Of a stretch of DNA of 64,000 bases, positions 14,316 to 14,395 are shown in pieces (the first letter of the stretch is position 1; each line of letters starts with the position of its first letter). Origin of the DNA: Escherichia coli (GTDB lineage Bacteria > Pseudomonadota > Gammaproteobacteria > Enterobacterales > Enterobacteriaceae); NCBI RefSeq assembly GCF_044647545.1, contig NZ_CP172818.1. One strand, given 5' to 3'. Made by a program: the position numbers and the translations under genes. The notes beneath the pieces are model-generated. The model worked only from the letters and a program-made list of their open reading frames with translations, had not been told where the DNA came from and did not search any database.

Positions 14316-14353
14316 TGGTGATCGCCGGATGCTGTATGTTCCCCTCACCCTAA

Positions 14354-14395
14354 CCCTCTCCCCAGAGGGGCGAGGGGACGGTCCGTGCGCTTTTT
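14354..14395 (+). terminator. GC-rich imperfect palindrome followed by T5 downstream of tktB (candidate terminator / intergenic repeat)
   Basis: ccctctcccc aga ggggcgaggg (10-bp stem, 1 mismatch) then ...gcgcttttt. Confidence 0.3.

Follow-up and report, generated by a model that had tools for sequence, protein, structure and literature searches.

The GC-rich imperfect palindrome located directly downstream of tktB in the window, the 64-kb stretch of Escherichia coli DNA analyzed here, is a copy of the repeat variously named BoxC, PIT, TMECO and HPG1, and we consider it highly probable that this copy is a selfish or neutral repeat with no function specific to the locus and that it is not a canonical intrinsic terminator. 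The element itself is already known, and the copy at tktB-ypfG appears to represent a new locus for it. The BoxC copy, at about positions 14335-14410, fills most of the tktB-ypfG spacer at the position where strain K-12 carries REP sequences, and in the account that we favor, it would behave as a non-autonomous, MITE-like palindromic repeat. The original prediction had offered two readings of the palindrome, a member of a small intergenic repeat family or the tktB terminator; the first of these was borne out by the analyses described below, and the second was not.

Identity and anatomy of the repeat

The window carries the genes maeB, talA and tktB and, on the opposite strand, ypfG, nudK and aegA, and the kilobase used for testing is 100% identical in a number of complete genomes, among them FDAARGOS_497, ECONIH1, MS6198 and that of a strain called ST648. 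The plus-strand open reading frame at 12249-14315, annotated as a transketolase in a window-identical genome and as tktB in K-12, ends in the stop codon TGA at 14313-14315. The stop codon of ypfG (TAA on the minus strand) lies at 14418-14420, and the two genes, whose K-12 homologues are tktB and ypfG, converge on an intervening spacer of 102 bp (14316-14417). The BoxC copy is entirely intergenic, lying between the two stop codons, which is the location described for BoxC, PIT and TMECO elements.

The minus strand of positions 14341-14376 reads CCCTCGCCCCTCTGGGGAGAGGGTTAGGGTGAGGGG, a 36-nt core that is identical, letter for letter, to four K-12 BoxC copies, i.e., nos. 9, 16, 19 and 22 (type A, one mismatch) in Table 1 of Holder et al. 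2015. In that table, no. 9 lies next to fabI/envM, the site of the original BoxC description (Bergler 1992) (PMC4666352). Holder et al. treated BoxC (Bergler 1992), PIT (Hoyne, Maher 2000/2002) and TMECO as one motif, tabulated 23 K-12 copies, considered 63 loci, and gave the TMECO consensus as 5'-CCCTCNCCC N3-6 GGGNGAGGG N3 GGGNGAGGG[G/T/C/-]-3' (PMC4666352). A regular expression written from this consensus matched the minus strand of 14342-14376, where loop 2 is TTA (type A) and one Watson-Crick pair is mismatched (mm), the features that define the sub-type. The same sequence has been described as the HPG1 G-quadruplex/hairpin motif, whose sequence, GGGAGAGGGTTAGGGTGAGGG, is contained in the window copy and whose definition requires a C-rich tract about 3 nt upstream of the G-rich string (Kaplan et al. 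2016, PMC5100583). In the window, the HPG1 string dGGGAGAGGGTTAGGGTGAGGG was found exactly on the minus strand at 14342-14362, following CCCTCGCCCC and the loop TCT. BoxC has also been named among the known stem-loop families of E. coli by Petrillo et al.

The K-12 copies were recovered at their published coordinates with the regular-expression match confirmed, and 24 copies were collected from K-12 and other loci. Matching places per E. coli genome had a median of 17-18 and a maximum of 32, with 21 in K-12, and the search for additional genomic copies that had been proposed as a check returned 12 places in the window-identical genome; the motif is thus dispersed and multi-copy, as BoxC/PIT/TMECO is. 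No further copies were detected inside the 64-kb window by searching for 22- and 25-nt sub-motifs. Rfam contains no BoxC family, and an Rfam scan of 14000-14800 (E<=10) returned only sub-threshold chance matches, the best being Antizyme_FSE, whose 22.3 bits fall short of the gathering score of 40.

The exact 36-nt match to a multi-copy family also bears on whether the palindrome could have arisen by chance or could be a REP/BIME element, a reading whose probability we regard as negligible. This reading draws on the adjacent sequence at 14320-14334, which resembles a REP head, and on the REPs that K-12 carries at the same site. Against it, the 22- and 25-nt sub-motifs gave 0 chance matches in the shuffled window, and 14335-14410, which includes the whole of 14341-14395, lacks the REP consensus GCCGGATG..(loop)..TATCCGGCCTAC that the K-12 spacer allele contains. 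The sequence identity to the repeat family is therefore far beyond chance. BoxC and REP/BIME elements are both short, GC-rich palindromes outside of genes that occur in 3' UTRs or between convergent genes and form a stable RNA hairpin, but the BoxC sequence is unrelated to the REP consensus, its copies number about 20 compared to about 500-600 for REP, and its strand asymmetry, with one strand being homopurine-rich, is not a feature of REPs. We know of no RAYT transposase associated with BoxC.

The three-block architecture is most easily followed on the minus strand, which is the G-rich strand of the window copy. Reading 5' to 3', it consists of the C-block CCCTCGCCCC (14367-14376; plus strand, GGGGCGAGGG), loop 1 TCT (14364-14366; plus strand, AGA), the first G-block GGGGAGAGGG (14354-14363; plus strand, CCCTCTCCCC), loop 2 TTA, which defines type A (14351-14353; plus strand, TAA), and the second G-block GGGTGAGGGG (14341-14350; plus strand, CCCCTCACCC), the latter providing the third strand in the purine-motif triplex described by Holder 2015 (PMC4666352). 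In plus-strand order, the same layout is CCCCTCACCC, TAA, CCCTCTCCCC, AGA and GGGGCGAGGGG (14367-14377), followed by gcgcttttt at 14387-14395, the last five letters of which form the T5 run (14391-14395).

All of the elements of the GC-rich imperfect palindrome that had been described at 14341-14395 were found where the original prediction placed them, including the 10-bp stem with one mismatch and the T5 downstream. The stem is formed by the first G-block and the C-block, which on the plus strand represent its 5' arm (14354-14363) and 3' arm (14367-14376), respectively; CCCTCTCCCC and GGGGCGAGGG make nine Watson-Crick pairs and one T/C mismatch (a G opposite an A on the minus strand) around the 3-nt loop AGA. 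A competing hairpin uses the same 3' arm, with TCCCCTCACCC at 14340-14350 being 91% complementary to GGGCGAGGGGA at 14368-14378.

As a fold, the palindrome is less distinctive than as a sequence. GC-rich 10-bp stems with at most one mismatch gave four overlapping matches at three loci in the window, compared to a mean of 0.85 in Markov-1 controls; the other two hairpins of this kind are located at 47489-47516 and 59331-59357. The predicted fold of 14352-14396 has a free energy of -17.2 kcal/mol. Folding z-scores of the core range from -0.1 to -1.2, and the spacer as a whole scores -2.25; these values are weak because C-runs and G-runs fold well however they are shuffled. The palindrome taken as a hairpin alone is modestly unusual, and the information sits in its sequence, not in its fold.

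Outside of the core, family conservation was evaluated in an alignment of 16 type-A copies. Conserved positions comprise about 4 nt (GTTC/TTTC) ahead of the core, the 36-nt core itself, and a right arm of the form GACCGTCCGTGCGC-TTTTT-AG-ACTTTGTCATCAGTCT. In the window copy, TGTT at 14337-14340 (plus strand) is the end of the conserved left junction (..TGTTC or TTTTC ahead of the core), and GACGGTCCGTGCGCTTTTTAGG at 14377-14398 (plus strand; family consensus GACCGTCCGTGCGCTTTTTAG) is the conserved right arm, which includes the T5. The plus-strand segment GCCGCATCTGCG at 14399-14410 may represent a degenerate outer end of this arm (consensus ..CTTTGTCATCAGTCT), an assignment that is tentative given its weak homology. 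BLAST similarity to other copies spans 14337-14397/98. The window copy retains the core, most of the right arm and only a few bases of the left arm. A T-run of five or more in the same register is found in 6 of the 16 aligned copies, and in the hybF-hybG copy, the only full-length copy delimited, the T5 pairs with the inverted partner GAAAAAG of the left arm. The T5 is part of the conserved right arm of the repeat. Compared to this full-length copy, the left arm of the window copy is cut to a few bases.

Five K-12 loci contain a type-A and a type-B copy in head-to-head arrangement, separated by about 20-60 bp. Solo type-A copies have a left flank (..GCTGGCCTGTTC) that resembles the spacer common to these composites, and they may be halves of a type-A/type-B composite.

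Transcription through the tktB-ypfG spacer

The suggestion that the hairpin at 14354-14376, together with the U5 encoded at 14391-14395, constitutes a Rho-independent (intrinsic) terminator of tktB was examined against the architecture of the element, its other copies, and published 3' ends. Several features invite this reading: the element lies 26-80 nt past the tktB stop codon, the 10-bp stem with its single mismatch provides a stable GC-rich stem-loop with U5 downstream, and the spacer is without any other canonical terminator. In addition, the authors of the Enterobacter sp. 638 genome presumed a role in termination for the related CCCTCTCCC..GGGAGAGGG palindromes. The spacing, however, does not agree with it, as a U-tract is needed 0-2 nt after the stem, whereas the T5 begins 12-14 nt beyond the stem end (14376 or 14378). 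Predicted folds leave these 12-14 nt ahead of the U-run unpaired, the tail is likewise unpaired, and no alternative hairpin abuts the U-run. A promoter/terminator consensus scan of 14100-14700 returned no site.

The other copies of the family weigh against the same reading. The T-run belongs to the conserved repeat arm and pairs with the A-run of the other arm in full-length copies. BoxC copies are found in both orientations and within operons (pstA-pstB and hybF-hybG). The identical core and T5 occur between pstA and pstB, inside one operon, in an orientation such that the mRNA carries the C-rich strand and then the T5, as the tktB mRNA would; at hybF-hybG, the mRNA carries the G-rich strand. 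Published reporter assays were also negative, in that PIT elements showed neither promoter nor terminator activity (Hoyne & Maher 2002, as summarized by Holder et al. 2015, PMC4666352).

Transcript ends mapped by Term-seq in K-12, which carries the REP allele at this locus, were taken from the entries listed in the supplementary tables of Adams et al. 2021 (PMC7815308). Among these entries, the only 3' end on the tktB strand at this locus is 2581778 (+), which by coordinate transfer is equivalent to window position 14462, downstream of the spacer. This end lies 6 nt after the plus-strand hairpin GGGCCAG-GCGT-CTGGCCC (14439-14456), which is also present in the window, within the 3' end of ypfG and outside of the repeat. 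On the basis of the entries listed, transcription of tktB in K-12 appears to continue past the spacer and into the region antisense to ypfG. Similarly, the listed adk 3' end in K-12 is at a separate canonical hairpin 61 nt past BoxC no. 6, and no 3' ends were found among the listed entries in the intervals around BoxC copies 13, 14, 19 and 23 (PMC7815308).

The element shares with Rho-independent terminators a GC-rich stem-loop, a T-run somewhere downstream, and a position just past a stop codon, and differs from them in the 12-14 nt gap between stem and T-run, the in-operon copies, the occurrence in both orientations, and the negative results of the reporter assays as summarized by Holder et al. 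Altogether, the BoxC copy is probably not a purpose-built terminator of tktB, and we hold its action as an intrinsic terminator to be very improbable. The BoxC allele may nevertheless have a weak or partial terminator effect, an RNA-stabilizing effect, or an effect on Rho loading. As part of the tktB 3' UTR, the element would form a stable GC hairpin, predicted at about -17 to -21 kcal/mol, which might slow 3'-exonucleases, as REP hairpins do.

A related proposal is that the G-free, C-rich tract CCCCUCACCCUAACCCUCUCCCC, present in the RNA in the tktB orientation, is a Rho loading (rut) site, with Rho-dependent termination following a few tens of nucleotides further on, in the sequence antisense to ypfG. 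We regard this proposal as very unlikely. The tract consists of 23 nt of C, U and A without G, and the convergence of tktB and ypfG means that read-through would be antisense to ypfG. Rho-dependent sites have been listed 80 nt, about 350 nt and about 1.35 kb downstream of three K-12 BoxC copies (Adams et al. 2021, PMC7815308). The first of these, a bicyclomycin (BCM)-sensitive site, lies downstream of BoxC no. 15, a copy that follows frlR in the same orientation, in line with the proposal, but the spacing across the three listed sites is inconsistent. Furthermore, about half of the tract is tied up in the hairpin, copies of the family show no bias in their orientation to genes, and the locus is served by the REP allele, which has no tract of this kind.

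Alleles of the spacer and mobility of the family

The K-12 spacer between tktB and ypfG is 94 bp long and holds REP sequences and no BoxC copy. Among 5426 complete E. coli genomes, about 813-830 (about 15%) carry the BoxC allele. Alignment of the window with K-12 and four other alleles delimited the allele-specific segment, the full BoxC copy, as the 76 bp at 14335-14410, which replaces the REP and tgtccccgcc segment of K-12-type alleles. Common to all of the alleles compared are tgatggtgatYgccggatgctg at the left and attttgtttaa at the right. The REP alleles measure 76-137 bp and differ in having one to four tandem copies of the 14-mer gattgccggatgct / GATTGCCGGATGCT and in partial duplication of the REP tail. 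A megablast alignment bridges the BoxC and REP alleles at 84% identity, and REP-allele counts were therefore not taken from it. The site is polymorphic, through allelic replacement of REP by the BoxC segment or the reverse.

The REP-head-like 14/15-mer GATCGCCGGATGCTG at 14320-14334 (plus strand) is common to all of the spacer alleles, occurring one to four times in tandem in REP alleles and as a single 14-mer copy beside BoxC in the window. Together with 14401-14411, it forms an outer inverted repeat, and the minimum free energy fold pairs 14320-14334 with 14400-14412. This outer repeat (14321-14332 / 14401-11) was considered as the terminal repeats of BoxC itself and was rejected, since its left half is common to the REP alleles.

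A sign of mobility was found elsewhere, between the hybF stop codon and the hybG ribosome-binding site, where a 121-bp BoxC-containing insertion is present in 20 of the 5426 genomes (strain A30 and 19 others) and the K-12 spacer is 12 bp. It comprises 116 bp plus the flanking 5-bp direct repeat TTATT, and its arms are imperfect inverted repeats. The TTATT repeat overlaps the hybF stop codon. A search of the 5426 genomes for a donor found the 44-nt left arm at this site only.

The hybF-hybG copy looks like a MITE insertion. With MITEs such as ERIC/IRU it shares an intergenic position, the lack of coding capacity, imperfect terminal inverted repeats, and the 5-bp TTATT duplication; it differs from them in that no donor copy was found in the 5426 genomes. 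The hallmarks of terminal inverted repeats and duplication are absent from the window and adk-hemH copies, which are segment replacements, and the window copy has no target-site duplication and ambiguous ends. At adk-hemH, a 156-bp BoxC-bearing segment and a 52-bp segment replace one another, which is not an insertion. About 2900 genomes have the K-12 allele of adk-hemH, in which BoxC is followed by a separate canonical terminator hairpin, and roughly 2500 have the unrelated 52-bp segment with a hairpin of its own. A second clean filled/empty site was found neither at adk-hemH, due to the replacement, nor at zntA-tusA, where the variants were complex only. The one clean filled/empty site, hybF-hybG, is the single comparison from which we infer that BoxC is a selfish mobile repeat. 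To our knowledge, BoxC has no transposase partner.

The family beyond the window

The published work on this motif has raised a further alternative, namely that BoxC is a functional DNA-structure switch, adopting triplex, G-quadruplex or hairpin forms and selected for regulation or genome plasticity (Kaplan 2016, Holder 2015). As single-stranded DNA, the one C-block and two G-blocks would be expected to fold back into a hairpin, a triplex or a G-quadruplex. A type A mm oligonucleotide forms a stable triplex in vitro, with a Tm of about 74 C, and CD and NMR identified a purine-motif intrastrand triplex of type A mm single strands in vitro (Holder 2015, PMC4666352). G4 and hairpin forms have been reported as well (Kaplan 2016, PMC5100583), and TMECO loci vary more than control loci (Holder 2015, PMC4666352). 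These structures were not shown by in vivo DMS footprinting or by spectroscopy of double-stranded DNA, and the copies have no orientation or gene-class bias (Holder 2015, PMC4666352). The copy number ranges from 1 to about 30 among strains with no known phenotype, and the REP allele serves the tktB-ypfG site equally in 85% of genomes. Taken together, these points leave a selected structural switch as an unlikely explanation. The preferred reading, a selfish or neutral repeat, includes an association of the BoxC family with local sequence turnover, and the picture at hybF-hybG and adk-hemH fits the statistical link of TMECO loci with such turnover that was drawn by Holder et al.

A further point in favor of a structural function is the breadth of the core. 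A wide distribution of the motif was reported earlier (Holder 2015, PMC4666352; Kaplan 2016, PMC5100583). We searched species-representative genomes for exact matches to the 22-mer CCCTCACCCTAACCCTCTCCCC and obtained at least 120 stretches from at least about 40 genomes spread over many phyla. Among the matches listed were Alpha-, Beta-, Gamma- and Deltaproteobacteria, Verrucomicrobia, Thermoflexales, a Desulfotomaculum MAG, Gastranaerophilales, and two archaeal MAGs in which contamination is possible. The 22-mer often occurred many times per genome among these matches, and a GGGG[A/C]GAGGG block was located within 24 nt in 97 of the 124 copies listed. The flanks of the 22-nt core were taxon-specific; for example, about 30 of the listed copies from Pseudomonas sp. 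dw_612 had a common long right arm, GACTGACCGAGGTGTTCTT..CATCGACCTGAAA..CGAGTCGAACTCAGG. Exact conservation of the core across phyla is hard to square with pure neutrality of the element and suggests that some constraint acts on the sequence itself.

A more speculative proposal, which we put forward as possible though doubtful, is that small mobile palindromic elements form a pan-bacterial family and that BoxC is its conserved core module. We raise it because the exact 22-nt core is found across many phyla, flanked by arms specific to each taxon, because the 116-bp insertion in E. coli is clean and has a 5-bp target duplication, and because BoxC and REP are exchanged at tktB-ypfG. If this were true, it would imply a sequence-specific mechanism of insertion or replacement, perhaps at REP-like, hairpin-rich 3' intergenic sites, as well as some constraint holding the core unchanged from phylum to phylum.

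For annotation of the window, these observations indicate that the feature should be labeled as a BoxC/PIT/TMECO repeat rather than as the terminator of tktB. BoxC was described more than 30 years ago, and we know of no function, mobilizing enzyme or explanation of its near-perfect conservation. The points of greatest interest are the pair of REP/BIME and BoxC alleles and the hyb insertion with its target duplication. The tktB-ypfG spacer amounts to a natural two-allele experiment, with about 15% of the genomes carrying BoxC, the rest carrying REP, and near-identical flanks in both, and the contrast between the two alleles could show whether BoxC affects mRNA 3' ends, mRNA stability or local mutation.
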